A stretch of DNA of 64,000 nucleotides from Nitrospirota bacterium (GCA_021789555.1 JAJYJK010000001.1:76581-140580); one strand, 5' to 3'. Shown: positions 2,789 to 26,523, counted from the first letter of the stretch. Notes: generated by a model from the sequence alone, not told the origin. Program-made: numbers and translations.

Positions 2789-2823
2789 AAAAAACAAAAA
2801 AAAAAAGAAAAACACCCTCACCC

Positions 2824-2857
2824 AACCCTCTCCCTCGAGGGAGAGGGTTTCACAAAA
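2824..2857. repeat. Palindromic element copy A (11-bp stem, TCGA loop, GGGTTTCACAAA tail) between convergent fdhA and modC; probable bidirectional terminator
   Basis: AACCCTCTCCC-TCGA-GGGAGAGGGTT at 2824-2849. It is flanked by a long A-run on the plus strand, which is a T-run on the minus strand. A second copy lies at 36864-36900. Confidence 0.6.
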
Positions 2858-2861
2858 GGAT

Positions 2862-3587
2862 TCACGGCAGCCCGCCAACAAGCGCCGCGCTGTCGCCCCC
2901 TGCGGGCCGTTCCAGCACTTCCCAGGGACTGCCGGTCTGCGCGACCCTCCCCCCGGAGTAGACTATCAGCCTGTCGGCCACTTCGCAGGCCTCCTTGATG
3001 TCATGCGTCACAAGGACAATCGGAATGCCGAACTCGCGCCTTACAGCCAGAAGCATCCTTCCCATTTCATCGCGGAGGCCGCGGTCCAGGGCCGAAAAGG
3101 GCTCGTCCAGCAGAAGGACATCCGGCCTGCCGATAAGCGCCCTTGCAAGCGCGACCCGCTGCTTCTGGCCGCCCGATATCTCGCGCGGATACCTCTGCCA
3201 GAGACCCCCGATATGGAAAACCTCCAGCATACGGTCTATCGCGCAGGCCTCCTGCCCCCGCCCCCCCTTCAGGCCGAAGGCGATATTGGCGCGCACGGTC
3301 ATATGAGGGAAAAGGGCAAGGTCCTGGAATACAAAACCCAGCCTGCGCCGCTGCGGCGGCAGGTCCACTTCCGGCGAGCGGCGTCCCCCCGAGGACTCAA
3401 AGAGGGTCCTGCCCTGCGCGACTATCGCGCCCTCATCCGGCCGCATCAGCCCCGCGATGGCCCTCAGCGTGAGCGTCTTTCCCGCGCCGGAATGCCCAAA
3501 GAGGACCGCTATCTCGTCCTCCATCCGCCACTTGACGTCCAGGGAAAACCCGTTTAGTTTCTTTCTTATATCAACCGTGAGCCCCAT
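2862..3587 (-). CDS. modC: Molybdate/tungstate ABC transporter ATP-binding protein (no C-terminal TOBE domain)
   Basis: Walker A GHSGAGKT, signature LSGGQKQRVALARAL, Walker B LLLDEPFSALD. The ABC-like N-terminus begins at MGLTVDIRKK (ATG 3587). The 63 upstream codons of the track ORF are Arg/Pro/Gly-rich and not ABC-like. Confidence 0.85.
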   Translation of the reverse strand: MGLTVDIRKKLNGFSLDVKWRMEDEIAVLFGHSGAGKTLTLRAIAGLMRPDEGAIVAQGRTLFESSGGRRSPEVDLPPQRRRLGFVFQDLALFPHMTVRANIAFGLKGGRGQEACAIDRMLEVFHIGGLWQRYPREISGGQKQRVALARALIGRPDVLLLDEPFSALDRGLRDEMGRMLLAVRREFGIPIVLVTHDIKEACEVADRLIVYSGGRVAQTGSPWEVLERPAGGDSAALVGGLP

Positions 3588-3816
3588 ATTTTTTCTTATC
3601 TGGACTCGCCCATTGCCCTCATCCCAAATCCCGGCAAAAACGAAATGCGGGCGCAGCAAGTAGCGCCTATACGCACTTCCATGCCACTCTCCCTGGCTGC
3701 GGCTTGCGGCAAGCGAAGCGCGCCCTGGGGGCCGGCGCGGAAGCCCGCCCTGGCGGGGATGGAGTGCGCGGCCCACATTGGCGCGCGCAGCGAGCCGCCT
3801 TGCCGCGGCCGGGCCC

Positions 3817-4488
3817 TCAAATTATCCTCCTGCTCATCCTGTTTGCCAGGTAGATTACCGTGCCCGACAGCAGCGTAAGTATGATGACCATGCCGTGGAC
3901 GTGCGACCAGTCGCCGCTTTCAAGATAGCTGTAAATGGCAAGCGGCATCGTCTCCGTTCTGCCCGGGATGTCCCCGGCGAACATGAGTGTGGCCCCGAAC
4001 TCCCCTATCGCCCTCGCGAAGGAAAGCACCAGCCCCGCCAGTATCCCCTTGCCGGCCAGGGGAAGTATCACGCTGAAGGCGGTCCTCAACTCGCCGTGCC
4101 CAAGGGTGTACGAGGCGTTCACCAGGTTTTGGTCCACGGATTCCATCGCGGCCCGCGAGGTCCTTATCATGAGCGGCATCGCCACTATGAACGATGCCAG
4201 GGCCGCGGCGTACCATGTGAACGTGACCGTCCAGCCGGTAAGTTCGTAAAGGGGCCGGCCGACTATCCCCTCCCTGCCGAAGGTGATTATCAGATAATAG
4301 CCCGTCACCGTGGGCGGCAGCACCAGCGGCAGCGTCAGAAGGACGTCCAGCAGCCCCTTGCCCCAAAAATTCTTCCTGGCCAGGATATAGGCCATCGGCA
4401 CCCCGGCCAGCAGCATGAAGACCGTCACCACAAACGCCACCTGCAGCGACAGCCGGATCGAAAATAATACGGGGGAGGAAGCGCCCAT
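3817..4488 (-). CDS. modB: Molybdate ABC transporter permease
   Basis: Multi-TM protein with the ABC-permease EAA-type loop (SFARAIGEFGATLMFAG). Its N-terminus resembles ModB/CysT, and it lies immediately downstream of modA. Confidence 0.85.
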   Translation of the reverse strand: MGASSPVLFSIRLSLQVAFVVTVFMLLAGVPMAYILARKNFWGKGLLDVLLTLPLVLPPTVTGYYLIITFGREGIVGRPLYELTGWTVTFTWYAAALASFIVAMPLMIRTSRAAMESVDQNLVNASYTLGHGELRTAFSVILPLAGKGILAGLVLSFARAIGEFGATLMFAGDIPGRTETMPLAIYSYLESGDWSHVHGMVIILTLLSGTVIYLANRMSRRII

Positions 4489-4489
4489 T

Positions 4490-5329
4490 TTATTTCAATA
4501 CCGCCCGGAACCCGAATTCCTCCAAAATAGCCCTGCCCCGCGCGCTCCTGATCAGGGATATGAAGGCCAATGCCAGTTTCTTGTCGGGTGAAGACGAGCC
4601 TTTAACGGCGGCAATGGGATACAGGACCGGCTTGTGGCTCGCCGGCGGCGCGACCGCTGCAACCCTTACCTGATCGGGGATGGTGGCGGCATCAGTCGAA
4701 TAGACAATCCCCGCGTCCACCTCCTTCCTTGCGACGTAGGCAAGCACTTCCCTTACGTGCTGGCCGTAAATGAGCTTCCCGCTTATGGCGGGCAGCAGCT
4801 TGTAATAGCGCAGGACCGCTTCGGCATACCTGCCGGCAGGCACCGTCGCCGGATTGCCCATCGCAATCCTGGCCGCCTGCGGCCGGGCCAGATCGCTGAA
4901 ATTTTTTACCTGGGCAGCGGAGGGGTTGCCGGCCGGCACTATAAGCACCATGGTGTTGCCGGCGAAATCGGCCCTCGATCCGGGCTCTATCAGGCCCTTT
5001 TTTTCAATCTCATTCATCTCCTTCTCCGCGGCGGAGGCAAAGACGTCAACCGGCGCGCCCTGCTCTATCTGCATGGCCAAATCTCCGGAGGCCCCGAAAT
5101 TGAAAAATATCCTTGCGCCCCTGTTCTGCGCCACGAAGACCTTTGCCATCTCTTCAAAGGCGTTTTTCAGGCTTATCGCCGCCGAGACGGTAATGCTGCC
5201 CGCATTGGCGACCCCGCCGACCGAATATCCCCCGGCCGCGTATCCGTTTGCCGGGAAGGCAATCGACGCGACAAAAAAGGCCGCGCCAAACAAAAAAGTA
5301 ACCGCCTTAAGAAACCAAAATTTCTTCAT
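4490..5329 (-). CDS. modA: Periplasmic molybdate-binding protein
   Basis: Signal-peptide-like N-terminus, then the ModA-type stretch FNFGASGDLAMQIEQGAPVDVFASAA. First gene of the modABC order. Confidence 0.85.
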   Translation of the reverse strand: MKKFWFLKAVTFLFGAAFFVASIAFPANGYAAGGYSVGGVANAGSITVSAAISLKNAFEEMAKVFVAQNRGARIFFNFGASGDLAMQIEQGAPVDVFASAAEKEMNEIEKKGLIEPGSRADFAGNTMVLIVPAGNPSAAQVKNFSDLARPQAARIAMGNPATVPAGRYAEAVLRYYKLLPAISGKLIYGQHVREVLAYVARKEVDAGIVYSTDAATIPDQVRVAAVAPPASHKPVLYPIAAVKGSSSPDKKLALAFISLIRSARGRAILEEFGFRAVLK

Positions 5330-5415
5330 CCGCGAAAAAAGTCCCCCTTTGCACGATCGAATCGCCCGGCCATCCGGGGCGGTATATCCCTTTTCCCCCT
5401 TTCCCTGCGGGCGCT

Positions 5416-6381
5416 TCAGCCCCCAACCTGGCTCATGGCGTCGCAGGGGATGGATTTTTGGAGAAGGCTTCCTTTCGCCTTGCTCAATACTGAAGTGAGC
5501 AATAACCGTTCCATATCGCCTTCGCCGGAGGCGGCGCTGATATCCGCCTCGTAATCCGAGAAGAGGCAGGGCCTTATCCTGCCAGCCGCGGTTATGCGCA
5601 GGCGGTTGCAGGAGTCGCAGAAATGGTCGCTCATGGGGCTGATGAACCCGATTGTCCCCGCGCCCCCGGCGAGCCTGTAATTTGCGGAAGAGCCGCTCCT
5701 GCCGATGGGGATGAGCTCGCCCGTCGTCCGGATGGCCGCCCTCGCCTCATCCGCCGTTACGCGCCGTCCGTCGAAGAGTGAAGAATCAAACTCGCGCCCG
5801 ACCGGCATAAGCTCTATGAAGCGTATATGCCAGCGCCTTTTCAGGCTCAGGGCCGCAAACTCCGCGACCTCGTCATCGTTTACCCCCCTTATCGGTATCA
5901 TGTTTATCTTTACCGGGGTGAGCCCGGCCCCCTCGGCCTGCTCGATGGCCCGGTAGACATTTTGAAGATTTCCGCCACCCGTAATCCGTCTGTAGCGCTC
6001 CGGCCGCATCGAGTCCAGGCTTATGTTTATCCGGTCAAGCCCCGCTTCCTTAAGTCGCTTTGCGAAGAGCGGCAGGAGCTGCCCGTTTGTCGTAAGACTG
6101 AGGTCCTCCACCCCGATTTCCCTGATGGCCCGGACGAGCCCGGTTATGTCCTTTCTCAAAAGCGGCTCGCCCCCGGTGAGCCTGACCTTTTTGAGCCCGT
6201 GTCCCCTGGCGATCCTCAGAAACTGAAGCAGTTTTTCCGTCTTCAATATCCGGGAGGGTTTCAGACAAGGCGGCGGCGACGCCGGAACGCAGTACATGCA
6301 GCGCAGATTGCACCGGTCCGTCACGGAAACCCGGATGTAGTCTATCTTCCGGTTGAATGTGTCCCTCAGTTCCATCTTCAT
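5416..6381 (-). CDS. moaA: GTP 3',8-cyclase (radical SAM, molybdenum cofactor biosynthesis)
   Basis: VSVTDRCNLRCMYC radical-SAM cluster motif and a MoaA-like C-terminal Cys motif (FCDSCNRLR). ATG 6381 (MKMELRD) is preceded by AGGGGG. The longer track ORF would overlap the upstream gene. Confidence 0.85.
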   Translation of the reverse strand: MKMELRDTFNRKIDYIRVSVTDRCNLRCMYCVPASPPPCLKPSRILKTEKLLQFLRIARGHGLKKVRLTGGEPLLRKDITGLVRAIREIGVEDLSLTTNGQLLPLFAKRLKEAGLDRINISLDSMRPERYRRITGGGNLQNVYRAIEQAEGAGLTPVKINMIPIRGVNDDEVAEFAALSLKRRWHIRFIELMPVGREFDSSLFDGRRVTADEARAAIRTTGELIPIGRSGSSANYRLAGGAGTIGFISPMSDHFCDSCNRLRITAAGRIRPCLFSDYEADISAASGEGDMERLLLTSVLSKAKGSLLQKSIPCDAMSQVGG

Positions 6382-6434
6382 CGGCCCCCTAATATTTCCC
6401 GACCCGCCTTTGGTATTTTCCAAATGGACCCGCC

Positions 6435-7505
6435 TTAGTATTTTCCGAAGGGACAGGTCGGATATGTGCAGACCGGGCAGTGAAGGCAAAGACCTCCGTG
6501 GCCAAGCTCCGCCAGCTCGCCCCTTCCTATTTCCTCCCCCGCCAGGACCCTCGGCAGAATCAGGTCGAGCACCGTTATCCTGCTATACATGGCGCAGGTG
6601 GGCACCCCCAGCACGGGAATGCCGCCATCGACGTTTTCACTTTCTAAATAAGCGACCAGGAACATGGAGCCGGGCAGCACGGGGCAGCCATATGTCATCT
6701 TCGAGGCGCCCAGTCTCCTTATGGCGAACCTCGTGACGTCATCGGGGTCCACGGACATCCCGCCGGTTGCGATGAGCAAATCCGCTCCCCCCTCAATGAA
6801 TTCCCTCAGCCTGGCCTCGATAAAGACCTCGTCGTCGGGCGCGTAGGCGATGCCGGCGACCTCGCCACCGTATGCCTCTATCTTCTTCCTCATGACGGGG
6901 GCAAACGCGTCCTTGATCCTGCCTGAAAACACCTCGCCCCCCGTTATCACGATGCCCGCCTTCGGCCGCCTGAGCGGTTTTACCTCAACGATGCCGCCTT
7001 TTTTGCGGGCGGTCCTTGCGGCCTTCAGGACGGCCTTCCTTTCGACCACAAGCGGCACGGCGCGGGTGGCGGCAACCGTCTGCCCCTCCCTGACGAGCGA
7101 GCCGTCGTGAAGGGTGGCGCAGACGACCTCTCCGCCCAGGTTGAACTTCATCAGCGCGGACCTGTCTACCCTCAGAAGCCCGGCTTGCCCCGCGACGATA
7201 TTTAACTTTCCCTCTCGCGGCTCTCCCTGCATCCGGACCCCCGGGCCCATCAGCGCCTCTGCCAGGGCATACGCCGCATCGTCCTCATGCATCATGGCGG
7301 GCCCAAGCTCTAGGACATAAAGGTTTTCCTTCCCGAGCCTCCTTAGATGCCCTATGTCCTCCCGCTTTACGATATGGCCCTTACGGAAGGCGGGCCCCTT
7401 AAAATCCGGCCGCACTTCGGTAATATCATGCGCGAGCACCATCCCGACCGCTTCAACTACCGGTACGGTCCTGCCCGGCGTACCTTTATCGTTTTCCTTG
7501 CCCAT
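6435..7505 (-). CDS. Molybdopterin-binding (MoCF-biosynthesis domain, MoeA/MogA-like) protein with a C-terminal Cys cluster
   Basis: GIVITGGEV...ADLLIATGGMSVDPDD is the MoCF_biosynth-type core. The C-terminus is CLHCPVCTYPTCPFGKY. It sits inside the moa/mod block. Confidence 0.65.
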   Translation of the reverse strand: MGKENDKGTPGRTVPVVEAVGMVLAHDITEVRPDFKGPAFRKGHIVKREDIGHLRRLGKENLYVLELGPAMMHEDDAAYALAEALMGPGVRMQGEPREGKLNIVAGQAGLLRVDRSALMKFNLGGEVVCATLHDGSLVREGQTVAATRAVPLVVERKAVLKAARTARKKGGIVEVKPLRRPKAGIVITGGEVFSGRIKDAFAPVMRKKIEAYGGEVAGIAYAPDDEVFIEARLREFIEGGADLLIATGGMSVDPDDVTRFAIRRLGASKMTYGCPVLPGSMFLVAYLESENVDGGIPVLGVPTCAMYSRITVLDLILPRVLAGEEIGRGELAELGHGGLCLHCPVCTYPTCPFGKY

Positions 7506-7517
7506 TCATAAATCTCC

Positions 7518-8492
7518 CTACGGCCCGAACAATTCCTTAAAGCGCTCGTCCGCGGCCTTTCGTACGTCCTTCTCGATTTCATCGTATCTTGAGAGAAAAT
7601 CCCTGATTTCGGGCGTAAGCTCGGCGCCCCCTCCGCCCTTGCCGCCAGCCCTGCACTCCACAAGCGGGATGCCAAGCCGCTTTTCCATCGCCTTTATGTA
7701 GCTCCACGCCTTCCTGTACGAGATGCCCACTTCCCTTGCCGCGCGGTTTATCGAGCCGTATCTGCCGACGGCCGCAAGCAGCAGCATCTTGCCCTTGCCG
7801 AAAAAGGGCTCCCCCTCAAGCTCGATCCAGAGCTTCGACCTGATCCCGAAATCGTTATGCTTGATTTGCATAACGGACGGCGAAAAAAAAGAAGCTGCGG
7901 AATCATTCTCGCCCTTTAAAGTGAAATACCCGCCGTTTGCGCAGGGCCGGCACAGGGGCCGGCCGTTCTTTTCTACCTCGCGCCGGTCCTGGACGTACTC
8001 GCCGCAGGCCGCGCATCTGACCCTGCCCAGCGGCCTGCCGGGCATCTCCTCGGGCCTCATATTCACCGAGACCCGGGAGACTTTGAAGAGCTCGCCCTCG
8101 GGCATTATCCGGTAGGCCTTCAACTGCGCCTCGTATCTGTCTTCTATCTCGGGAAAATACTGCCGCGCCTTGTGCCTGGATTCCTCTTTCGCGAGCACCC
8201 GGAACGCCGCCCCGCTCCTAATATTCAAGAAAGTCGCCGCCATCTTCCCGTAATCCATGAATTTTAGCGACCTTTTGCCAAGCGTGCAGCCGGTGACCGA
8301 TTGAATGGCGTCCGTGGCGCACCTGTCTATCTCCACATAGACAATAAAGTCTTTCCTGTCTTTGCCCTTTGGGTCAGTTATCCCGATTGCCGCAAGCCCC
8401 ACCATCGACATGCGCACTCCTAATACCTGGCCGGCGCAGAGATGGCCGTGGACCCTCACCGACTCCCGAAGCAGTTCCTCGAAATCTTTCAT
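7518..8492 (-). CDS. FmdE-domain / zinc-ribbon / ModE-type HTH fusion protein (putative Mo/W-responsive regulator)
   Basis: The N-terminus VHGHLCAGQVLGVRM...EIDRCATDAIQ is FmdE-like. The middle is CAACGEYV...CRPC. The C-terminus LLLAAVGRYGSINRAAREVGISYRKAWSYIKAMEKRLG...GGKGGGGAELT is the ModE N-terminal HTH signature. Confidence 0.7.
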   Translation of the reverse strand: MKDFEELLRESVRVHGHLCAGQVLGVRMSMVGLAAIGITDPKGKDRKDFIVYVEIDRCATDAIQSVTGCTLGKRSLKFMDYGKMAATFLNIRSGAAFRVLAKEESRHKARQYFPEIEDRYEAQLKAYRIMPEGELFKVSRVSVNMRPEEMPGRPLGRVRCAACGEYVQDRREVEKNGRPLCRPCANGGYFTLKGENDSAASFFSPSVMQIKHNDFGIRSKLWIELEGEPFFGKGKMLLLAAVGRYGSINRAAREVGISYRKAWSYIKAMEKRLGIPLVECRAGGKGGGGAELTPEIRDFLSRYDEIEKDVRKAADERFKELFGP

Positions 8493-8543
8493 TGCTTACA
8501 AACGCCCTTTCAATCTTTTTATAAAGTCTACCAATCCTGAAGA

Positions 8544-8954
8544 TCAAAAGGAAGAAAATTCTCCAGGCTTCAGTCCTCCGGGTTTTAAGGGGGGCTGTCC
8601 GTCAAGCGCCCTCTTGATGGACTCCTTAAGCTCCTTCATCTTAAAGGGTTTCGGAAAGAAATCGTGCACGCCGCCCCTTATGGCCTCGATTGCGACATCA
8701 AGATTGGCGAAAGCCGTTATCATTATGACCTTGGTCCCGGGATAAAGGCCCTTTACGACCCTGAGGACCTCGAACCCGTCCTTGCCCTTCATCTTGAGGT
8801 CCGTCACAACGACATCGAACTCCAGATCCCTAATCCTGTCAAGGGCCAGCACCGAATTTACGAAGGTCTCGACTTCGTGGCCCTCCTGTTCCAGCGAGAG
8901 TTTGGCTATATCTCCCACGATCTTCTCGTCATCAATTATCATTATCCTGGCCAT
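8544..8954 (-). CDS. Stand-alone response-regulator receiver (CheY-like)
   Basis: IMIIDDE, VVVTDLKMKGKDG (phospho-Asp), VIMITA and FFPKPF give complete REC residues with no output domain. Confidence 0.85.
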   Translation of the reverse strand: MARIMIIDDEKIVGDIAKLSLEQEGHEVETFVNSVLALDRIRDLEFDVVVTDLKMKGKDGFEVLRVVKGLYPGTKVIMITAFANLDVAIEAIRGGVHDFFPKPFKMKELKESIKRALDGQPPLKPGGLKPGEFSSF

Positions 8955-9095
8955 TGAAAGAAGACCCCCGTCAAGATAAAAACAAAAAACCCATCCGCTT
9001 GCGCCCGCCCCCGTCCATAAAGCCGCCCTTTTTATGAATTATGCCATAACTTGCAAAGAAACGGTCCGCGCCTCTCATTCCGAGACGCTCGCCCC

Positions 9096-10280
9096 TCATT
9101 CCGATACAATCCTTGTGATGCCGTATTTCTCTTTCCGGACCGGCAGATACCAAAGCATTCCGTCCACGGTCATGAGGAAGCCCGCCAATATGAGGAAAAA
9201 ATCCAGGAAACTGTACGGGCCCTGCCTTAAAAATTTGCTCATCGCAAAGCCCAGTCCCATGAATGATATGCCGGTCCGTATGAAGGCCAGCCCCGTCCTC
9301 GCCCTCGCATATATCGTCCGGTAGCAGCCGGCAAGAGTCCTCTGGGCGGCCAGCATGTTACGCTCCCTGGCCAGGTGCGTCCTCTCCTTGCTGGCCGGAC
9401 TGGGGGGAAGGATGGTGCTGTAATCGGTCACGAAATCCCCCAAACGGGCCAGCATCGTGCCTTTTGTTTTTTTCCCGGGCGCGCCCTCCAGGTGATATTC
9501 CTGGGTGAAATGCAGTGTCACGCCCGTCACCTCCACCAGGGTCTGCTCTCCTGGCGTGCTCATGCGGGACCTGCGCACCCTGACATAGGTGACAAACCCG
9601 CTCAAGGAAAAAACTATCCCCACGAGCAGCATCAGCGCGTAAAACGGTTTCAGCGGATGGGCCTTGATCCTCATCAGGGCATCGGAGAGGGCCACTATGC
9701 CAAGCCCCCACCTCAGAAGGGCCAACCCCGTTCTGGCCTTGGCAAGGTCGGTCCTGTAGCAGGCAAGCCTCGTCCTCCAGTGGGCCATGACATTGCGCCA
9801 GCAGGCAAGCCCCGTCCTCTCTATGCCTATGAGAAATTCGGGCCTCGCGTGCAGGTAATCCTGTATATACCACTGTATGTCCTCCGCGAGGGCGACCCTG
9901 AACTCATACATCTCGGCCGGAATTAGCTTCATCGCCTCGCTCCTCACCGTCCGGCTCTCCGGGTTAACGGCCGCGATGACAACCGTTGCCCCCGTCATCA
10001 TCACCGGGAACCACTGGCTCCTCGAGAGCACGTCGCTTTTGAGCCCCTCAAAGAGATGCGTCGGCACGGGCAGCCTCTCGTCATACTGGATGGAGCCGCA
10101 TCCGAAATGCCTTGACAGGGCGGCCAGAAGGGCCCACCTTGGAACGCCAAATTCCCTCAAGAGCACCCTTTCGACCTCGACCCCGCGGGCCCTTGCCGCG
10201 TCCCGCGCCTTCAAGAGGGCCTCCTCCGTGATGACCCCCTCTTCCACCAGGGGCACGAATTTTCTCAACTTACCGGTCAT
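9096..10280 (-). CDS. T2SSE_N/MshEN-like N-terminal domain fused to two DUF202-like membrane modules (paralog B)
   Basis: The N-terminus KFVPLVEEGVITEEALLKARD...ALLAALSRHFGCGSIQYDE is GspE-N-like. Two modules follow with heptad-spaced RT motifs (ERTHLARERNMLAAQRTLAGCYRTIYARARTGLAFIRTG), each followed by 2 TM helices. ATG 10280 (MTGKLRKF) overlaps the upstream stop by 11 nt. Confidence 0.6.
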   Translation of the reverse strand: MTGKLRKFVPLVEEGVITEEALLKARDAARARGVEVERVLLREFGVPRWALLAALSRHFGCGSIQYDERLPVPTHLFEGLKSDVLSRSQWFPVMMTGATVVIAAVNPESRTVRSEAMKLIPAEMYEFRVALAEDIQWYIQDYLHARPEFLIGIERTGLACWRNVMAHWRTRLACYRTDLAKARTGLALLRWGLGIVALSDALMRIKAHPLKPFYALMLLVGIVFSLSGFVTYVRVRRSRMSTPGEQTLVEVTGVTLHFTQEYHLEGAPGKKTKGTMLARLGDFVTDYSTILPPSPASKERTHLARERNMLAAQRTLAGCYRTIYARARTGLAFIRTGISFMGLGFAMSKFLRQGPYSFLDFFLILAGFLMTVDGMLWYLPVRKEKYGITRIVSE

Positions 10281-11928
10281 GGCTGAAGAAAACCCTCTTC
10301 CAGGAGACGCAGGGCACGCTGTAGTCGGGCGGCTGTATCTCGAAGTCCCCGAAACAATACGGGAACTGCTTTTTTTCCCTCTCGGCCGGCACAAGCCAGT
10401 AAATGCCGTCGCCGGTCAGATACAGGCCCGCGGCGATAAGGAAAAGTTCGAACCCCGCCCAGTACATGTTTCTCGTCCCGAAATAGATAAAGAGCCCCGC
10501 CCCTACCGCCGAGATGCCAAGCCCCGTCCTGATGAAGGCCATTCCAGTCCGGCAGCGGGCCATCACCGTCCTTAATCTTGCCATTATATTGCGCCTGTCG
10601 GCAAGCAGCGTGCGCTCAAGCGCAAGGCCGGTCGTGGCCCAGACGCCGGGGCGCTGCCCCCGGCAGACCGCGGGGGCGGGATGATTTTCCCCGCTGTGTT
10701 TTCCATCTCCGGAGGCAAAATGGCTGAACATCGGGAAGACGCGGTCCCATATCGTCTTCGTCCTCTCGGCCCTCTTTATGCTTTCCAGCCCGGCCTTCCC
10801 CGCCCCCCTGCCGGGCAGGTACCAGTGAAAACCCTCGGCTATCATGGCCGCGCCGGACACAATCAAACCCCAGGTGAAGATGGAGGAGGCCCATCCTCCA
10901 TGGCCGAACTGGCGCAGAAACCCTATCCCTATGCCGGAGAAGGCGACCCCCGTCCTGGTGAACGAAAGCCCCATCCTGGCCTTGGCCATCCTGGTCCGAA
11001 GAAAAGCCAGGATCGTCCTTTCCTCGGCCAGATCGGTGCGGTCGCTGGCAAGAAACCTCCGTCTTTCAACCGGGGAGAGCGAATCCCACTGTCTCCTCAG
11101 GGGGCCGGCCCCTTTTACAACGGGGCTTCTGCCGAAATTCGGGGTTTCTCCCGGATTTGAGACCTCGAGGGCTGAAAAATCATCGGGGATATCATAGGGG
11201 TGATAGGGATAAATGTCCCTTGACTGCCGCCTCGCCGGCAGGTACCACAAAAAGCCGTCCCAAACGGCCGCAATCCCCAAAAATATCAGCGGCGCCTCCA
11301 TGGCAAGCAGCCATCCCGCGCCAAAAAGCCTGAGAAACGAGACCGAGATGGTGATAAACGCCAGGCCCGTCCGCAAAAACGCGAGCCCCGTCCTGCCCTT
11401 TGCGAAGGCCGTCCTCTGGGCGGCATATGCGGAGCGCCTGTCCGCCAGATATGTCCTCACCTTGGCAAGCGGCGTCCTGCCGGCCGAGGGGGGAAAAGCC
11501 GGGTTCAAGTCCCAATTGTTTTCTATTATCCTGATCAGGTCCGGGCGCGCGGCGGCCAGAAAATTTATCTCATTTACCCCGAGGGTCTCCCGGATGCCCC
11601 GGCCCAGCTCCGGATCGTCCGGCCTGCAGGCTATGACCTCCGCCCTGCCTTCAAGGATTGAGACAGGCAGCCAGAGCTCGGCCTTCAGCCTCTCCACATC
11701 CATCCTCCGCAGGATGGACTGCGAGACCATCAGGTTCTCCTCGTATTCGACGACAGGACAGCCGAAATGCTCCGCCAGGCAGAAAAGGACTTCGTGCTTC
11801 GGCACACCGGCCTCCAGTATGGCGTCCTCCAGGCAATTGCCGTTGCCGCCGGCCTTTTCCTGAAGGTCTTCCAGGTCCCGGGGGGTCAAAAACCCCCGCC
11901 TTATGAGCCGTTCGAATCTCTGCGGCAT
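10270..11928 (-). CDS. T2SSE_N/MshEN-like N-terminal domain fused to three DUF202-like membrane modules (paralog A)
   Basis: The N-terminus is RFERLIRRGFLTPRDLEDLQEKA...VLFCLAEHFGCPVVEYEE. Three modules follow, e.g. LERTLLADRRNIMARLRTVMARCRTGMAFIRTGLGI, each followed by 2 TM helices. Confidence 0.6.
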   Translation of the reverse strand: MPQRFERLIRRGFLTPRDLEDLQEKAGGNGNCLEDAILEAGVPKHEVLFCLAEHFGCPVVEYEENLMVSQSILRRMDVERLKAELWLPVSILEGRAEVIACRPDDPELGRGIRETLGVNEINFLAAARPDLIRIIENNWDLNPAFPPSAGRTPLAKVRTYLADRRSAYAAQRTAFAKGRTGLAFLRTGLAFITISVSFLRLFGAGWLLAMEAPLIFLGIAAVWDGFLWYLPARRQSRDIYPYHPYDIPDDFSALEVSNPGETPNFGRSPVVKGAGPLRRQWDSLSPVERRRFLASDRTDLAEERTILAFLRTRMAKARMGLSFTRTGVAFSGIGIGFLRQFGHGGWASSIFTWGLIVSGAAMIAEGFHWYLPGRGAGKAGLESIKRAERTKTIWDRVFPMFSHFASGDGKHSGENHPAPAVCRGQRPGVWATTGLALERTLLADRRNIMARLRTVMARCRTGMAFIRTGLGISAVGAGLFIYFGTRNMYWAGFELFLIAAGLYLTGDGIYWLVPAEREKKQFPYCFGDFEIQPPDYSVPCVSWKRVFFSHDR

Positions 11929-11990
11929 CTTTGGCAGATAAAACCCTTATTTATTATAAGTTATAGGGGGAACTATCAGCAAATTAAATT

Positions 11991-12019
11991 TTACATTCTA
12001 TCATAATTGGAGTTACAAT
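11991..12019 (+). promoter_or_regulatory. Sigma-70-type promoter candidate for the first MFS gene
   Basis: TTACAT (11991-11996), 17-nt spacer, TACAAT (12014-12019), in the AT-rich divergent intergenic region. Confidence 0.35.
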
Positions 12020-12060
12020 AAATCTAGGATTATTGAGTGATCAAGAGGAGGGAAGCAGAC

Positions 12061-13980
12061 GTGCGCAGGCAATTGAGGTTTCCGCATCCGTATTTTTCTT
12101 CACATCCCGGCTGGAAATGGTTGATCCTGGCAACCGTGCTGATGGGGGCCGCCATGTCCGCCCTGGACGTAAGCATCGTGAATGTGGCCATGCCCACCCT
12201 GAAGACGCAATTCCATGTATCCATGCCCGTAATCGAGTGGATAACCATGGCCTATATGCTCGCGTTGACCGTCTTCCTGCCGCTGTTTGGCAGACTCTCG
12301 GACATTTACGGCAGGTCGAGACTCTACAACGCCGGTTTCCTGGTATTTGCGACGGGTTCGCTTCTCTGCGGGCTGTCGTCTTCCGCGGCGCTGCTCATCG
12401 CATCGAGGGTCGTCCAGGCAGTCGGCGCAGGGCTTCTTCAGGCCAACTCGATCGCCCTTGTTGTGCAGGCCTTCCCGGCAAAAGAGAGGGGCAAGGCAAT
12501 CGGCATCCAGGGCGCCGTTCAGGCGATCTCGATGGCGTTGGGTCCCTTCGTGGGCGGTCTTCTTATCTCCACAATAAGCTGGCGCGCGATCTTTTTCCTC
12601 AATATCCCCATAGGCGTCATGGGCATTATAGCCGGTATCCTTGTGCTGCCTGCCGATGAAAGGTCCGCCGCGAAGGAAAAAGTGGATTATTCGGGGGCCA
12701 TTTTACTTGCCTCCGGTCTGGGCTTCCTGATGCTTGCGATAAACGAGGTCGTGAAACTCGGCTGGGGCTCGGGCACGATCCTGGCCTATTTCCTCTCTTC
12801 GCTTGTGCTCCTTGGCCTTTTCATAATGCGGGAGCTGAAGGCCGCAAACCCGCTCATCGATTTGAAGCTCCTGAAAAATTCCTCGTTCCTCCTGGGCAAT
12901 CTCAGCAGCATGTTCTCCTATTACGTCCTCTTTGCGATGCTGTTTCTCATGCCCTTCTACCTGGAAAAGGCGCTGGGCTACGGGGTGGAGCTTACCGGCT
13001 TTCTGCTGACGCCGCTCCTGCTTGCGATGGCGGTTGTGGCCCCTTTTTCCGGCCACATGTCGAGCAAATACGGGGCAAGGATAATGACCACCCTGGGCAT
13101 GCTCGTCTCGGCCACGGCCTGCCTTTTTCTGCTTCTGGGCGAGTCCTCCGGGATACCCGCGCTGGTAGGCGTGATGATATTTCTTGGCGTAGGGATGGGT
13201 CTCTTTACGCCCTCCAATAATAACGCGGTGATGGCGGCCGCCCCCAGGGACAAACTAAGCGTTGCCGGCGGGATATTGAACATGATGCGTTCCCTGGGGC
13301 TCATCTTCGGCGTGAACATCTCCGGGATGATATTCACCGGCCTGGAGCACCGGTACCTGACCGAAAAGGGGTTCCCCAACGCGCAGCATGTCTTCAGCAA
13401 CCTGAGCATCCCCGCAGGGATAAAAGACAACGCGTTTTTGCACGGTTTCGTGGTTGTGCTGCTGGTGCTGGTGCTGCTGAACCTCCTTTCCTTCATCTTT
13501 TCAGCGGCCAAGAAAGGCGGCCCTTCAGGCGTAATAGACGATGAGATCACGCCGGTTGTCATATCCTCGGGCTTCCTCACCGGGCTTACACGCGAGATGG
13601 AGGGAAAGGCCGTATATGTGGCCCTTCTTCTGTTTGTCGGGTTTATGGGCACGTTTGCCACTGAGCAGCTCAGGCGGGAGGGTTTCCGTCCGGCCTCAGG
13701 CGACGTCCAGAGCTGTTATCTCTCTCCTTCTGAAACCGGCATCCCCGCCAAAACCCCGGAGTCGGAAGCGGCAAAAAGACTGGCCCTGGTATATTACGCC
13801 GACAAATACGGCGACAAGGATGTATCGGTCGAGGTCAGGGCGGCCGGCGACCATATGGAGGCCCTGCTGTTCAAGGATGAAGCGCTCGTCAAAAAACTGG
13901 AGATACGCGGCAACTCCGTAATGGAAGCGAAAACCGGCCTGCGCGACACATTGTATGATTTCTTTGTGCTTGTCAATTAG
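12061..13980 (+). CDS. MFS transporter, DHA2 (EmrB/QacA-like, 14-TM) family, with an extra C-terminal TM and a ~95-aa soluble extension
   Basis: Paralogous to the next gene from FPHPYFSS onward. LPLFGRLSDIYGRSRLY is the MFS motif A region. GTG 12061 follows AGGAGG (12046-12051) and aligns with the paralog N-terminus; the track start at 12037 is also possible. Confidence 0.8.
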   Translation: MRRQLRFPHPYFSSHPGWKWLILATVLMGAAMSALDVSIVNVAMPTLKTQFHVSMPVIEWITMAYMLALTVFLPLFGRLSDIYGRSRLYNAGFLVFATGSLLCGLSSSAALLIASRVVQAVGAGLLQANSIALVVQAFPAKERGKAIGIQGAVQAISMALGPFVGGLLISTISWRAIFFLNIPIGVMGIIAGILVLPADERSAAKEKVDYSGAILLASGLGFLMLAINEVVKLGWGSGTILAYFLSSLVLLGLFIMRELKAANPLIDLKLLKNSSFLLGNLSSMFSYYVLFAMLFLMPFYLEKALGYGVELTGFLLTPLLLAMAVVAPFSGHMSSKYGARIMTTLGMLVSATACLFLLLGESSGIPALVGVMIFLGVGMGLFTPSNNNAVMAAAPRDKLSVAGGILNMMRSLGLIFGVNISGMIFTGLEHRYLTEKGFPNAQHVFSNLSIPAGIKDNAFLHGFVVVLLVLVLLNLLSFIFSAAKKGGPSGVIDDEITPVVISSGFLTGLTREMEGKAVYVALLLFVGFMGTFATEQLRREGFRPASGDVQSCYLSPSETGIPAKTPESEAAKRLALVYYADKYGDKDVSVEVRAAGDHMEALLFKDEALVKKLEIRGNSVMEAKTGLRDTLYDFFVLVN

Positions 13981-13999
13981 AACTATCAGAGTGTATAAT
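13970..13999 (+). promoter_or_regulatory. Sigma-70-type promoter candidate for the second MFS gene
   Basis: TTGTCA (13970-13975), 18-nt spacer, TATAAT (13994-13999), overlapping the stop of the first MFS gene. Confidence 0.35.
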
Positions 14000-14043
14000 A
14001 ATTCATTTTTCCGGTTGAAATTGCTAAGGAGGCATCATAGAAA

Positions 14044-15555
14044 ATGAGTAGAAAGTTTCAGTTTCCTCACCCTTATTTCTCTTCAAAGCCAAGCTGGAAA
14101 TGGTTCATCCTGGTCAACGTCCTGATCGGCGCGACCATGTCGGCCCTCGATGTAAGCATCGTGAACATCGCGATGCCTACGCTTAAGAACGATTTCAACG
14201 TCTCGCTGGCGGTAATCGAATGGGTCGCGATGGCCTACATGCTCACGCTCACGATCTTCCTGCCGCTCTTCGGAAGGCTGGCGGACATGTACGGCCGCTC
14301 CAAGCTCTATAATACCGGGTTCATCATCTTCTCGGTCGGCTCTCTCTTTTGCGGCATGGCCCCTTCGGCGGCGTTCCTGATCGGCGCTCGCGCCCTTCAG
14401 GCGGTGGGGGCCGGGCTCCTGCAGGCAAATTCCGTGGCGATAATAACCGCGGCGTTCCCTTCCTATGAAAGGGGCAAGGCCATCGGCATCCAGGGGGCCG
14501 TGCAGGCTGTCGCAATGTCCATCGGCCCGTTCGTGGGCGGCGTGCTCATAGCCGCGGTGGGATGGCGCGCCATATTCTACGTGAACCTGCCGATAGGCGC
14601 CCTGGGCACAATAGCCGGCCTCCTCATTCTGCCCCGCGACAAGAAGAAGGAGCAGAAAGAGACCGTGGATTACTTCGGGACCGCCTTTTTCTCCTCCGGG
14701 CTCCTCTTCCTCGTGCTGGCCTTCAACGAGGGGGCAAAGCTGGGCTGGACTTCCCACACGATCGTCCTCTACTTCACCCTTGCGGTCGCCTTACTGAGCC
14801 TCTTCGTAATTACGGAACTGAAGGTCAAATATCCCCTTATAGACCTGAAGATGTTCAAGAACTTCACGTTCTCCGCGGGCAATCTGACCGGCATGATGTC
14901 CTATTACGTGCTGTTCGCGATAATGTTCCTGATGCCTTTCTACCTGGAAAGGGTGGTCGGCTACAGCGTAGCGCTCACGGGCAGCCTGCTTACTCCGATC
15001 CCGCTTGCCATGGCGTTCGTGGCCCCCTGGGCCGGCAGTGTGTCGGACAGGCGCGGCCCAAGGCTGATGACCACGAGCGGCATGCTGATCTCCGCCCTGT
15101 CCTGTTTCCTGCTGATGCTCCTGGGGGAGTCCTCCCATCTTGTTTCCCTGGTGGGCATCCTGATCATGCTTGGCATAGGGATGGGGCTCTTCACACCGCC
15201 CAATAACAGCGCCATAATGGGTGCCGCCCCCAAGGACAAACTGAGCGTGGCCGGCGGCATCCTGAACATGATGCGTTCCCTGGGGCTCATATTCGGCGTC
15301 GATATCTCGGGCGTCATATTCACCACCCTGGAGCACAGATACGTGGCCGAAAACGGATATCCGAACGCCCGCCATATATTCCGCAGCCACAACATGCCTG
15401 TCCCTGTTAAGGTGAACGCCTTCATGAAAGGCTTCCTGGTTGTGCTGGGCGTGCTTATAGCGCTGAACCTGGTCTCCGCGTTCCTGTCCGTCCTGAGAAA
15501 CGACAAGATAGATAAAGAGGCCGCCGAGGCTGCAAAGGAATTCGAAGGGGCCTAA
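14044..15555 (+). CDS. MFS transporter, DHA2 (EmrB/QacA-like) family
   Basis: A 14-TM pattern, LPLFGRLADMYGRSKLY, and high identity to the upstream paralog. AAGGAGG lies 9 nt upstream of the ATG. Confidence 0.85.
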   Translation: MSRKFQFPHPYFSSKPSWKWFILVNVLIGATMSALDVSIVNIAMPTLKNDFNVSLAVIEWVAMAYMLTLTIFLPLFGRLADMYGRSKLYNTGFIIFSVGSLFCGMAPSAAFLIGARALQAVGAGLLQANSVAIITAAFPSYERGKAIGIQGAVQAVAMSIGPFVGGVLIAAVGWRAIFYVNLPIGALGTIAGLLILPRDKKKEQKETVDYFGTAFFSSGLLFLVLAFNEGAKLGWTSHTIVLYFTLAVALLSLFVITELKVKYPLIDLKMFKNFTFSAGNLTGMMSYYVLFAIMFLMPFYLERVVGYSVALTGSLLTPIPLAMAFVAPWAGSVSDRRGPRLMTTSGMLISALSCFLLMLLGESSHLVSLVGILIMLGIGMGLFTPPNNSAIMGAAPKDKLSVAGGILNMMRSLGLIFGVDISGVIFTTLEHRYVAENGYPNARHIFRSHNMPVPVKVNAFMKGFLVVLGVLIALNLVSAFLSVLRNDKIDKEAAEAAKEFEGA

Positions 15556-15698: not shown

Positions 15699-16235
15699 CT
15701 AATCGATGGCGGGGTTTTCAGTCTCCGATATGTCGAATTCATAGCCGAATTCCGTCCCGGCCTTTGACAGAAACTGGCATATCTCGTCCCGCCCGGCCGG
15801 CTTCTCGAAGAAAATCCGGGTGATCCCGTGCCCCGTTTCCACAAGCAGATGATATTTGGCCCGGAACACCCCGACCAGCAGAAACAGACCCGTCCCCAGC
15901 ATCACCCAAAAGCCGACCGGGATCAGCGGGATAACGAAACCGTCGGGGTCCGTGTCCGCGTCGAGACGGAGCCCCGTCAGGCTCGAAACCAGGATTATAA
16001 ATTCGCCGATGACTCCGAGCATTACCATGGTGAAACCGGAGAGAAAATGGCAAAACGGGCGTTTCACCCCCGTGTCGCGGCAGAGCTTCAGTTTAATTAT
16101 CCGTTCCCTCGGGATCGTCTTGACGGGCTTTCCGCGCCGCAGCCGGCTGATCGAATTGGGCGAAATCATCACCCCGGAACATCTGAGATGCCCGCTTCCG
16201 CTTTCCTGCCCCCCATATGCGGAAGTCTCACTCAT
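15699..16235 (-). CDS. Hypothetical membrane protein (2 predicted TM helices)
   Basis: Open frame with two hydrophobic helices (FLSGFTMVMLGVIGEFIILV, VIPLIPVGFWVMLGTGLFLLVGVF). No family recognised. An extended -10 (TGATATAAT) ends 7 nt before ATG 16235. Confidence 0.5.
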   Translation of the reverse strand: MSETSAYGGQESGSGHLRCSGVMISPNSISRLRRGKPVKTIPRERIIKLKLCRDTGVKRPFCHFLSGFTMVMLGVIGEFIILVSSLTGLRLDADTDPDGFVIPLIPVGFWVMLGTGLFLLVGVFRAKYHLLVETGHGITRIFFEKPAGRDEICQFLSKAGTEFGYEFDISETENPAID

Positions 16236-16544: not shown

Positions 16545-17414
16545 TTATTTTATGCCGAAAAAATCCCTGATCCTCTCGAGCACGGACTCCGGGTTTCCCG
16601 ACTTGATGATATGGTCATCAACCCCGTGCTGAATGGCCATATGCGCCGTTTCCCTGTCGCCGTCCGTGACCAGAAAAACCGGCACGCCGCCCATGTCGCG
16701 GGAGCTTTTGAGCTTCTTTAATATCTGCCAGCCGCAGTCCAGCCCAGCCGGCCCGCAAAAATCCATCAAAACAAGGTCGGGCTTTATCCCGAGGGCCAGC
16801 TCCTCGGCCTTGGGACCCCCGTCCGCGTATGCCTCGAAATCCGCTCCGGAAAAAATGGCGCTGTAGCTCTCACGTCCTGAAGCGCTGGGGTCTATTATCA
16901 GTATCTTTTTCTTTTCGGCGGCGTCCGCGCCTCCCCGGGGCAGCTCCCGCGGGGCCATTGCCCCCTTCCGGGTCGCCTGGGACTCCATGAGCCAGTTATA
17001 AAGCCCGCCGGTCTGCCTGTATTCGAAGGCCTTTTCTTCCGGCCATTTCGAGGTGTCATGCCCAAGCAGCTCCACCTGCCTCTGATGGACATACCTGGCA
17101 AGCCTTTTCTGCTCCGGCTCGTTCCTGAGGAACTCTATTCCCCTCAGGCTCCCATACGTAAACCTGACTATGCCCGAAAGCTCGCAGACGCCCTGCCGGG
17201 GCAGAAAAATCCGTATCTGTTCGATCAGTGTGCCCGACGGAAGAAGGCCGTCCCGGCCGGCAACGGCGTCGCTGATCTGTATCATGACGCCCCCGATGCT
17301 TATATTTCTCACCTTGATGAAAGGGGCCATGCCTTTCAGCTCTTCCTGCATGAATGAAACTTTCACAGGATCGGCGCCCGAGGGGGGCACCCTCAGGTAA
17401 TCTCTTTTCTTCAC
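16545..17414 (-). CDS. PilZ domain - receiver domain hybrid protein (candidate c-di-GMP-responsive stator regulator)
   Basis: The N-terminus has the PilZ signatures RDYLR (RxxxR) and NISIGG (D/NxSxxG). The C-terminal REC has ILIID, LVLMDF, FLVTD and IIKS. GTG 17414 is preceded by GGAGGG. Confidence 0.75.
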   Translation of the reverse strand: MKKRDYLRVPPSGADPVKVSFMQEELKGMAPFIKVRNISIGGVMIQISDAVAGRDGLLPSGTLIEQIRIFLPRQGVCELSGIVRFTYGSLRGIEFLRNEPEQKRLARYVHQRQVELLGHDTSKWPEEKAFEYRQTGGLYNWLMESQATRKGAMAPRELPRGGADAAEKKKILIIDPSASGRESYSAIFSGADFEAYADGGPKAEELALGIKPDLVLMDFCGPAGLDCGWQILKKLKSSRDMGGVPVFLVTDGDRETAHMAIQHGVDDHIIKSGNPESVLERIRDFFGIK

Positions 17415-17598
17415 TCTACCCTCCGGGACCGAAACTCAATAACGACGGCCGCCTGTCCTCTCCGCAGGCGCACGGCCGGGCGCCCCTTCACCCGGCGCAT
17501 ATGTTGCCGCAAAAAACCCCGTAGTTTACTATACCAGAAGCAGGCCGGTTTGTATAAAAAGCCTGCTTTTTTCCGGGTCCGGCGCTGTTTCCGCGGCC

Positions 17599-18384
17599 CT
17601 ATTCATATGCCCTGGCCTGTTTGAAGAGGACTATCACCGAAATCCTTCTGTTTCTCGGGTCCAGGGGGTCGTCTTTCACGAGGGGGACCGTCTCGGCATA
17701 TCCGGCGACCCTCGATATGCGGGAAGGGTCCAGGCCATAGACGGTCAGGAGCCTCCTGGCGGCAAGCGCCCTCTCCGTGGAGAGGTCCCAGTTTGTATAT
17801 GCGCCGCGCACATAGGGGAGCGCGTCGGTATGGCCTTCTATGGCGACCTCGTTCGGGGCGTGCCTTATGGCCCCGCCGATGACGCTCAATATCCTTTTTG
17901 CGTCGGGGGTTGGGTTGGACGAACCGGTGTCGAACATCGGCCTGCCCTTTTTGTCCATGATCTGGATGCGCACGCCGCCATTGATGATGTCCACCCGGAT
18001 CTGGTCTTTTACATCGCCCAGCTTCTGCTGGATAAGGTGTTTAAGCATCTGCTCCATCAGCACCGGGCTGTTGGCCGAGCTGCTTGCGAACCGCTTTCTC
18101 ATCTCAAGGGAGAGTTTCGAGGCGTTGGCGCCGGACTCATTGAATACATTGCTGGATTTTTTCATGATGGACTGGCCGCTCTCGGTGAAGATACTGAAAT
18201 TCTTGAAGTAATCGGCGACCCTCGCCCTCTTCTCCGGCGCGATCATCGTAATCAGCCACAGCAGGAGGAAAAAGGCCATCATGGCCGTAACGAAATCGGC
18301 GTAGGCGACCTTCCAGGAGCCGCCGTGCGCCTCCTCACCGATCCTTTTAATCTTCTTTTTGATGATTATCTTCTTGTCTTTCAC
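17599..18384 (-). CDS. motB: Flagellar stator protein MotB (OmpA-like C-terminus)
   Basis: GGSWKVAYADFVTAMMAFFLLLWL contains the conserved plug/TM Asp. The C-terminus is OmpA-like, EGHTD...N..LS..RA. Confidence 0.9.
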   Translation of the reverse strand: MKDKKIIIKKKIKRIGEEAHGGSWKVAYADFVTAMMAFFLLLWLITMIAPEKRARVADYFKNFSIFTESGQSIMKKSSNVFNESGANASKLSLEMRKRFASSSANSPVLMEQMLKHLIQQKLGDVKDQIRVDIINGGVRIQIMDKKGRPMFDTGSSNPTPDAKRILSVIGGAIRHAPNEVAIEGHTDALPYVRGAYTNWDLSTERALAARRLLTVYGLDPSRISRVAGYAETVPLVKDDPLDPRNRRISVIVLFKQARAYE

Positions 18385-19232: not shown

Positions 19233-19251
19233 GCGGCCTCCCCTGGCATCG

Positions 19252-20757: not shown

Positions 20758-20867
20758 CCGCCAGCGGCCTGCGCCCCCCGAAAAGTCCGCGGGGGCGGGC
20801 AAGTTATTATGACCGTTTGCGCCCATATTATCCAGTGCGCCCGAATGGCTGTCCCGGCCATGGGCCA

Positions 20868-26266: not shown

Positions 26267-26310
26267 GTTTTTTTCCTCCGTGAATTTTTGTCTACCGGCA
26301 TCCTTGCCGG
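26267..26310 (-). promoter_or_regulatory. fliC 5' leader with two CsrA-type GGA sites
   Basis: Minus strand has the hairpin CCGGCA-AGGA-UGCCGG (26310-26295), with GGA in the loop. CACGGAGGAAAAAAACAUG carries a second GGA overlapping the SD. Confidence 0.6.
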
Positions 26311-26419
26311 TTTTAAAAGGTCTCTTTTCCGCCCTCCTCCTGATCCCCTGACCGGGCGGGCAGGCGCTTGAACCTTTGCAGTCACCCCTTTCTCGCGCCT
26401 TTTGAAACCCTTTAGTTAT

Positions 26420-26447
26420 TTATCGGAAGGGATAGGGGAAAACTTTA
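26420..26447 (-). promoter_or_regulatory. Sigma-28 (FliA) promoter of fliC
   Basis: Minus strand reads TAAAGTTT-N12-TCCGATAA. Confidence 0.8.
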
Positions 26448-26523
26448 GCGGAATGCCGAAAAACTCCTCCGGTTGCCGTTGCCGACGAGGTAATGCAACC
26501 TAATAATTCGATAAATCAATAAG

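Follow-up and report, generated by a model that had tools for sequence, protein, structure and literature searches.

Two overlapping genes on a contig of a Nitrospirota bacterium (GCA_021789555.1, JAJYJK010000001.1:76581-140580) raise the question of what is built when the N-terminal domain of a secretion-type ATPase is joined to a series of DUF202 membrane modules in place of an ATPase. The 64,000-nucleotide stretch that was analyzed is referred to here as the window, and positions are counted from its first letter. Gene A (10270-11928, minus strand) encodes a 552-residue membrane protein in which a GSPII/MshEN-fold N-terminal domain is followed by three DUF202 hairpins bearing ladders of arginines, as judged from its open reading frame (ORF), Pfam matches, homologs, and an AlphaFold2 (AF2) model. 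Gene B (9096-10280, minus strand) encodes a 394-residue paralog with the same type of N-terminal domain and two such hairpins. The stop of A and the start of B overlap by 11 nucleotides (10270-10280, minus strand), which we read as translational coupling, and a gap of 141 bp (8955-9095, minus strand) separates B from a gene for a single-domain, CheY-like receiver (8544-8954, minus strand). Both the overlap and the stand-alone receiver gene had been reported in an original prediction made from the sequence of the window, and ORF analysis and a Response_reg match of 89.8 bits bear them out. The frame of B is open from 9096 to a TTG at 10394 on the minus strand; we adopted the ATG at 10280 as the start, which is backed by an independent gene call (GCA_027328945.1, 394 residues) and by the N-termini of 63 aligned orthologs. 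The two proteins align by BLASTP with 29% identity (E 3e-40) across the N-terminal domain and two modules, indicating that A and B are paralogs and that B is A less one module.

Both proteins belong to the DUF202 family (PF02656), with Pfam scores of 47.9 bits in 4 stretches for A and 37.4 bits in 2 stretches for B against a cut-off of 23.4, so that the DUF202/YidH signature recognized in the original prediction lies above the cut-off in each. The predicted set of 3 + 2 modules with Arg-Thr (RT) dipeptides at a strict spacing of seven residues likewise holds. Chains of 6, 6, and 5 arginines at that spacing begin at residues 151, 290, and 439 of A, chains of 6 and 6 begin at residues 155 and 300 of B, and an arginine chain of 6 appears in 1 of 5000 shuffles of either protein. 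The hydropathy profile and both AF2 models give two membrane helices per module, as had been proposed, with a refinement: by DSSP analysis of the models, every module is a helical hairpin in which an RT-heptad helix of approximately 55 residues runs on without a break into the first membrane helix, with a second helix after it. In A, module 1 (residues 146-238; 11215-11493, minus strand) carries the ladder R151-R186 and R200 on helices spanning residues 151-202 and 208-236, module 2 (residues 285-377; 10798-11076, minus strand) carries R290-R325 and R339 with helices at 286-341 and 346-389, and module 3 (residues 427-521; 10366-10650, minus strand), which contains ERTLLADRRNIMARLRTVMARCRTGMAFIRTG, carries R439-R467 with helices at 427-483 and 488-521. 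In B, module 1 (residues 150-241; 9558-9833, minus strand; helices 153-204 and 211-237) is divergent, with Trp at the g positions of the heptads and RWG in place of RTG, and module 2 (residues 295-388; 9117-9398, minus strand; helices 296-350 and 358-386) carries R300-R335. The outer loops are only about 5 residues long, leaving almost nothing exposed beyond the membrane.

The ladder arginines are invariant across 73 A sequences and 63 B sequences. When the five module classes are aligned across many species, the consensus reads P....RT.LA..RT.LA..RT..AC.RT..ARARTGLAF.RTG..F...G..L.R.FG.G....F...LI.AG.....DG..WYLP.R. All five modules open the first membrane helix with the ERT.LA..RT signature, lengthened to six heptads, with arginine at consecutive heptad positions 6, 13, 20, 27, 34, and 41, the sole exception being Thr at position 6 in the class formed by module 3 of A (A3). 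Inside the membrane the same register is carried on by a small residue at 48 and by Arg or Lys at 55, again with A3 as the exception (Val or Ile at 55), and helix 2 contributes acidic residues. Sorted by heptad register, information content is highest at a (3.72 bits, Arg), followed by e (3.28, Ala), b (3.08, Thr), and d (2.67, Leu), with c, f, and g at 2.0-2.5 bits; the conserved surface of the module is its Arg/Thr/Ala/Leu face. Module identity across phyla is 58-71% within a class and 31-46% between the five classes. Because identity within classes exceeds that between them, we take the five modules to be old, non-equivalent, and individually constrained, which implies five non-equivalent sites within a single assembly. 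Conservation extends to the linkers and to the C-terminal tail of A.

The N-terminal domains of A (residues 1-139; 11512-11928, minus strand) and B (residues 1-145; 9846-10280, minus strand) adopt the MshEN/GSPII fold. Pfam scores MshEN (PF05157) at 38.2 bits in B and at 22.2 bits in A, just below the cut-off of 23.1. The assignment nevertheless stands for A because a profile of 73 A orthologs picks up Thermus PilF GSPII domains in the PDB (E values from 2e-9 to 5e-5) and because the AF2 models (pLDDT 79.7 and pTM 0.72 for A; pLDDT 77.3 for B) agree with it. Foldseek searches with residues 1-139 of A and 1-142 of B retrieve MshE (5htl), PilF (8pdk for GSPII-B and 9g1w for GSPII-A), PilB-N with PilZ (7lko), and XpsE-N (2d28) at probability 1.00, with target TM-scores of 0.6-0.74 (0.64-0.74 against 5htl, 8pdk, and 9g1w; 0.70 for B against 5htl). 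Pfam and NCBIfam detect no ATPase domain in either protein, and TIGR02538 matches only residues 11-145 of B, at 27.9 bits against a cut-off of 675. A GspE/MshE-like domain of about 140 residues without an ATPase is therefore what both proteins possess, as had been noticed originally, and profile searches returned the two families expected rather than unrelated ones, with the MshEN score of A marginally below threshold.

The original prediction went further and proposed that the assembly is gated by a nucleotide second messenger, since MshEN-type domains can be receptors for cyclic di-GMP (c-di-GMP). The c-di-GMP-binding motif of these domains consists of two tandem 24-residue copies of RLGxx(L/V/I)(L/V/I)xxG(L/V/I)(L/V/I)xxxxLxxxLxxQ, for which a relaxed form has also been given (Wang et al. 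2016, PMC5013675). We found neither the strict nor the relaxed form in any of the 136 family members (0 of 73 A and 0 of 63 B sequences). In motif 1, Phe takes the place of the RLG glycine, and a near-invariant Glu (E34) does so in motif 2 of the A proteins; motif 2 of B keeps the equivalent Glu (E37), and a one-residue insertion shifts the motif spacing. The NCBIfam model for the motif (NF053729) scores B at 13.6 bits against a cut-off of 38 and does not match A. In PilF GSPII-A, small deviations from the motif suffice to abolish c-di-GMP binding (PMC12002112). On these motif tests we rejected a c-di-GMP receptor identity for the two domains, and from the sequences we conclude that they would serve something other than canonical c-di-GMP binding. 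By analogy with the GspE-GspL and PilB-PilZ pairs, protein docking is the most likely use.

Do A and B act together? More than 900 relatives of A are present in the databases (53-86% full-length identity among the matches listed), and when each species was represented by one genome, 187 of 185,579 species had the A-B family. Its hosts are mostly Nitrospirota (Thermodesulfovibrionales, Dissulfurispiraceae, Ca. Sulfobium), joined by sulfur-oxidizing Proteobacteria (Acidithiobacillus, Acidihalobacter, Thiohalomonas, and Parasulfuritortus), and are largely sulfur-cycling organisms. B lies directly after A in all related loci that have downstream DNA, and the co-occurrence of the two paralogs, on which the original prediction had staked itself, is thus the rule. 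The overlap between the stop of A and the start of B is exactly 11 nucleotides, the commonest arrangement, in 38 of approximately 76 loci and 8-20 nucleotides in 52, with the rest having gaps of no more than 85 nucleotides. Because B invariably follows A and the overlaps are short, this is strong evidence for co-translation and for an A-B complex of fixed ratio, and we infer with considerable confidence that A and B form a heteromeric membrane complex. The heteromeric part of the original proposal is supported by this gene order, whereas its gating part, with the motif missing, is not supported. Some Nitrospirota (L036, L046, L049, L050, L067) carry an A-A'-B tandem with two A paralogs and eight modules. 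In a neighbor-joining tree of A, the window and its closest relative (locus L005), both from Nitrospirota, cluster outside the main Nitrospirota clade with all of the proteobacterial sequences (L001, L006-L008, L012, L019, L027, L052-L084), a topology that suggests transfer between phyla.

The proteins are present in public databases under names derived from their domains. Relatives of A are called "DUF202 domain-containing", "GspE/PulE/PilB domain-containing", "YidH", or "hypothetical", and those of B likewise, or at times "type II secretion protein". A literature search covering DUF202, YidH, MshEN architectures, TIGR02186/Alph_Pro_TM, and PPDK_N with receivers found no account of the A-B architecture or of the gene set described below, in keeping with the original statement that no characterized protein of this design was known to its author. 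What is new is the placement of the DUF202 module in a new architecture and the expansion of its arginine ladder.

The genes that surround A and B in other genomes show that the receiver is not the orphan it had been taken for. Its translation contains the residues DD8-9, D52, T80, and K102, which supply the phospho-acceptor Asp and the conserved DD, T, and K of a response regulator, and about 50 Nitrospirota loci encode an ortholog of it (64-77% identity) approximately 1.4 kb downstream of B. In these relatives a gene of about 470 codons for a HAMP-HisKA-HATPase_c histidine kinase lies between B and the receiver, and the receiver is followed by a gene for an 850-residue protein with PPDK_N and PEP-utilizers (swivelling His) domains, the C-terminal 290 or so residues of which are unassigned. 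We refer to the latter as the phosphoenolpyruvate (PEP)-synthase-like enzyme. The canonical Nitrospirota order is a 165-residue protein, TauE, Alph_Pro_TM, a tandem universal stress protein (Usp), a single Usp, A, B, kinase, receiver, and enzyme. Among 81 loci, the kinase is found in 53, the receiver in 50, the PPDK_N enzyme in 45, TauE in 45, Alph_Pro_TM in 43, and Usp in approximately 40. A and B thus sit within a conserved, uncharacterized gene neighborhood. Genes for GGDEF, EAL, and PilZ proteins are not among its conserved members in the 81 loci; polyphosphate genes are taken up below.

The window retains little of this set. It lacks orthologs of all conserved neighbors except the receiver, and orthologs of the kinase, the PPDK_N enzyme, TauE, and Usp are found nowhere in its 64 kb. 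The 141-bp gap holds no detectable kinase remnant, and a 42-codon ORF called within it has no Pfam match and no tblastn match in any related locus. The window has lost the kinase. At the DNA level, similarity to the closest relative does not continue past the stop codon of B. DNA identity to that relative is 86% for A and B and only 74% for the receiver, and the window receiver ends in a Pro-, Gly-, and Lys-rich extension of about 15 residues that is missing from its relatives. In Acidithiobacillus (L083, 5909-7775, and others), a conserved 441-residue protein without a Pfam family precedes A-B, together with a 173-residue protein that has a weak DsrE-like match and, farther upstream, a Sugar_tr-type MFS transporter.

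The RT-heptad form of DUF202 extends well beyond A and B. A 93-residue module profile matches 2,890 cluster representatives at E<=0.001, including proteins with a single hairpin, up to about 20 RT heptads, and no GSPII domain (P0261, P0265, P0267), and such single-hairpin proteins match the profile at E 1e-33 to 1e-42. In P0269, heptads and one hairpin are followed by a C-terminal receiver that is 45% identical to the window receiver; a PPDK_N/PEP-utilizers gene begins after a gap of 1 nucleotide, and two Usp genes and a second receiver-enzyme pair lie close by. P0351 joins a hairpin, a truncated receiver, and a PPDK_N enzyme in one frame, a fusion that is probably a deletion product. P0261, which has no MshEN domain, is encoded amid a PPDK_N enzyme, a receiver, Alph_Pro_TM, TauE, and a HAMP kinase. 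Because P0261, P0269, and P0351 share it, the association between RT-heptad DUF202 proteins and this partner set is conserved independently of the A-B architecture. Receiver genes followed by PPDK_N/PEP-utilizers genes also recur beside Usp, HSP20, and DnaJ genes (L086, 8001-11688 and 15742-17092; L085, 8001-9872), twice in one locus, and the swivelling phospho-histidine enzyme might act on the receiver.

What might such a complex do? We propose that A and B are two subunits of a conserved heteromeric inner-membrane complex, kept in fixed proportion through translational coupling. Each N-terminus would place in the cytoplasm a GSPII domain that has lost the c-di-GMP site and most likely serves in protein docking or regulation, much as the same fold docks GspL and PilZ in secretion ATPases. 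The first helix of each hairpin would extend from roughly 30 residues out in the cytoplasm through the membrane, presenting on one face six arginines at heptad position a, a small residue mid-membrane, and Arg or Lys at the outer end, flanked by Thr (b), Leu (d), and Ala (e). A polar residue at a, Leu at d, and Ala at e is the pattern of designed alpha-helical barrels in which a and d face the lumen, and by analogy the heptad pattern of the modules would fit helices that pack as a barrel. If the five ladders faced a common axis, they would line an extended conduit of positive charge in which an anion is conducted or held; phosphate, polyphosphate, or a sulfur oxyanion would be candidates. In the full gene set, which most Nitrospirota carry and of which A, B, and the receiver alone remain in the window, the GSPII domains together with the receiver would make up a regulatory layer and the PEP-synthase-like enzyme would be a functional partner. 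Receiver phosphorylation probably sets the activity of the complex, since the kinase and receiver are encoded alongside and relatives fuse a receiver to the hairpin.

We infer a conduit because basic residues with equal 7-residue spacing on the first transmembrane helix (TM1) line the polyphosphate channel of the eukaryotic VTC complex, the subunits of which are annotated as DUF202 (PMC7283521). VTC assembles five subunits in a 3:1:1 ratio, each with three membrane helices, and its five TM1 helices form the channel; the basic TM1 residues that line it (K24 and R31 of Vtc1, K622 and R629 of Vtc4, and K694, K698, R705, and R709 of Vtc3) are required to build the vacuolar polyphosphate store (PMC9911596). 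On this analogy, we tentatively favor an anion conduit under two-component control as the function of A and B, a reading to which we would assign a probability short of even. That polyphosphate is the substrate is, by the same analogy, improbable. It is more improbable still that A and B form a pseudo-pentameric, arginine-lined DUF202 tube, a prokaryotic counterpart of the VTC channel, that works with the PEP-synthase-like enzyme (ATP-grasp, swivelling phospho-His) under control of the HAMP kinase and receiver, the tube and enzyme jointly producing or loading a phospho-polyanion (polyphosphate, for example) and either moving it across the membrane or storing it there. Were it true, the system would couple the synthesis of a polymer to its translocation by a second, unrelated enzymatic route, and would provide a first function for bacterial DUF202 proteins.

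Several observations weigh against the conduit. Each VTC subunit has three membrane helices and each module has two. YidH of E. coli also has three membrane helices, with about two heptads, and in this respect too the modules differ. Foldseek searches of the A and B models against the PDB returned no VTC chains and only MshEN-fold matches, while the membrane part gave only non-significant matches to ABC exporters, ExbB, and helical barrels, and the 93-residue module profile retrieved no VTC chain from the PDB at E<=10. Aligned with Vtc1 by hhalign, the module places R34 on R31 and R27 on K24, in an alignment that is not significant (probability 2.4%). The numbering of the Vtc1 sequence used there agrees with that of PMC9911596. 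No ppk, ppx, TTM, or SPX gene is found among the conserved neighbors of A-B, and in proteobacterial loci A-B stand alone in unrelated contexts, without kinase, receiver, or enzyme. Finally, relatives carry from 6 to more than 20 heptads and the A-A'-B arrangement gives eight modules, which suits a stalk of variable length as well as a pore.

Such a stalk is the chief rival to the conduit. On that account A and B would be a non-conducting scaffold or signaling stalk, in which an RT-heptad coiled coil of variable length positions the receiver, the PEP-synthase-like enzyme, and universal stress proteins at the membrane, and the arginine face would line no pore and instead bind a partner, an anionic lipid, or a phospho-ligand. 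The heptads that precede the single hairpin of P0261, P0265, and P0267 look like spacers, the periplasmic loops of about 5 residues leave nothing exposed outside, the association with the receiver and enzyme is tight enough to include fusions, GSPII is a known docking domain (PilB-N with PilZ, 7lko; XpsE-N, 2d28), and the context of Usp, HSP20, and DnaJ is stress-related. An inert anchor does not, however, explain the conserved in-membrane residues R41, small 48, and R/K55 or the acidic residues of helix 2; the most conserved face is polar rather than hydrophobic; and TM1 of DUF202 is a pore helix in VTC, the sole characterized member of the family. We consider the stalk only a little less probable than the conduit.

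Two further accounts take their cue from the N-terminal domains. The gated heteromeric channel of the original prediction, with c-di-GMP or another nucleotide bound to the MshEN-type domains, could appeal to the completeness of their fold, to genes for PilZ-receiver (16545-17414) and receiver-HD-GYP proteins 5-11 kb away in the window, and to GGDEF/EAL genes near the A-B locus of Acidihalobacter. Against these stand the failure of all 136 members to show either form of the motif, the replaced RLG glycine, the NCBIfam score far below its cut-off, the PilF GSPII-A precedent for loss of binding upon small deviations (PMC12002112), and the lack of GGDEF, EAL, and PilZ genes among conserved neighbors, which together make this account very unlikely. 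An accessory role in a type II secretion or type IV pilus machine, as implied by database names such as "type II secretion protein" and "GspE/PulE/PilB domain-containing", is far-fetched: the N-terminal domains are indeed homologous to those of the GspE, PilB, and MshE ATPases, but the names stem solely from that match, A and B have no ATPase domain, and no type II secretion or type IV pilus genes are conserved neighbors in the 81 loci. We dropped this candidate for lack of such neighbors. As for a role in anti-phage defense, PADLOC gave only generic receiver and coiled-coil matches, and this candidate was rejected as well.

Other features of the window complete the description of the locus. 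Within 8300-12300, ORFs on the opposite strand match no Pfam family, yielding no antisense genes, and an Rfam search of the same interval matched no family. A sigma-54 promoter was sought upstream of A and not found, and scans for sigma-70 promoters and terminators remained at chance level. Directly downstream of the receiver, where relatives have the kinase/receiver/PEP-synthase-like operon, the window has a molybdenum/tungsten cluster (74-8492, mostly minus strand). It comprises a fusion of FmdE, a zinc ribbon, and a LysR-type helix-turn-helix (7518-8492), a MoCF_biosynth protein (6435-7505), MoaA (5416-6489), a ModA-like binding protein (4490-5329) with a permease and an ABC ATPase also in the cluster, and molybdopterin oxidoreductase genes (74-2788). 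On the other side, divergent from A, lie two tandem MFS_1 paralogs (12037-15555, plus strand), the first with a C-terminal extension of about 150 residues, and the same pair lies upstream of A in the closest relative. Beyond them, a 178-codon ORF (15699-16235, minus strand) has hydrophobic stretches and no Pfam family. A motility/c-di-GMP cluster (16545-22343, minus strand) follows, 5-11 kb upstream of A-B, with genes for the PilZ-receiver protein, MotB and MotA (17599-19232), a PAS histidine kinase (19252-20955), and the receiver-HD-GYP protein (20868-22343). This cluster is common only to the window and its closest relative and contains no conserved neighbor of A-B. The GC content falls to 0.494 in 26001-28000, compared with approximately 0.57-0.60 elsewhere, coinciding with a 1223-codon ORF (26524-30195, minus strand).

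The A-B pair and the wider RT-heptad set offer a tractable bacterial model for the large DUF202 family. They present a testable signature, consisting of 29 invariant arginines in five ladders, an obligate two-subunit design, and a conserved partner set, and cultured hosts exist in Acidithiobacillus and Acidihalobacter. Should the ladders line a pore, A and B would add a new type of anion or polyanion conduit to those of bacteria and would offer a way into the evolutionary origin of the VTC channel. They are also a further warning not to take each MshEN-fold domain for a c-di-GMP receptor.

Set beside known systems, A and B share with the MshEN/GSPII domains of MshE, PilB, PilF, and GspE/XpsE (PF05157) the full two-subdomain fold and its N-terminal placement, and differ from them in that no ATPase follows. 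Among these, their N-terminal domains resemble the non-binding GSPII-A of PilF or the partner-binding N-terminal domains of GspE and PilB. YidH-type DUF202 proteins belong to the same Pfam family and are likewise small, uncharacterized inner-membrane proteins with the ERT motif, but consist of a single module of about 115 residues and have no GSPII domain. P0261, P0265, P0267, and P0269 have the extended RT..LA.. heptads, the hairpin, and the same neighbors as A and B, with one hairpin per chain and no GSPII domain. To our knowledge, the VTC subunits are the only DUF202 proteins of understood function, and we know of no bacterial member with a known function. Unlike VTC, A and B have their modules joined in two chains, neither they nor their conserved neighbors include a TTM polymerase or an SPX domain, and their arginine ladder runs over six heptads rather than two, reaching about 30 residues into the cytoplasm. 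What A and B have in common with VTC is membership in PF02656, the ERT..A..RT signature, and basic residues at every seventh position of the first helix: heptad position a of the module holds Arg from 6 to 41 and Arg or Lys at 55, and K24 and R31 of Vtc1 likewise lie seven residues apart. The five modules of A and B, divided 3 + 2, recall the 3:1:1 pentamer of VTC.

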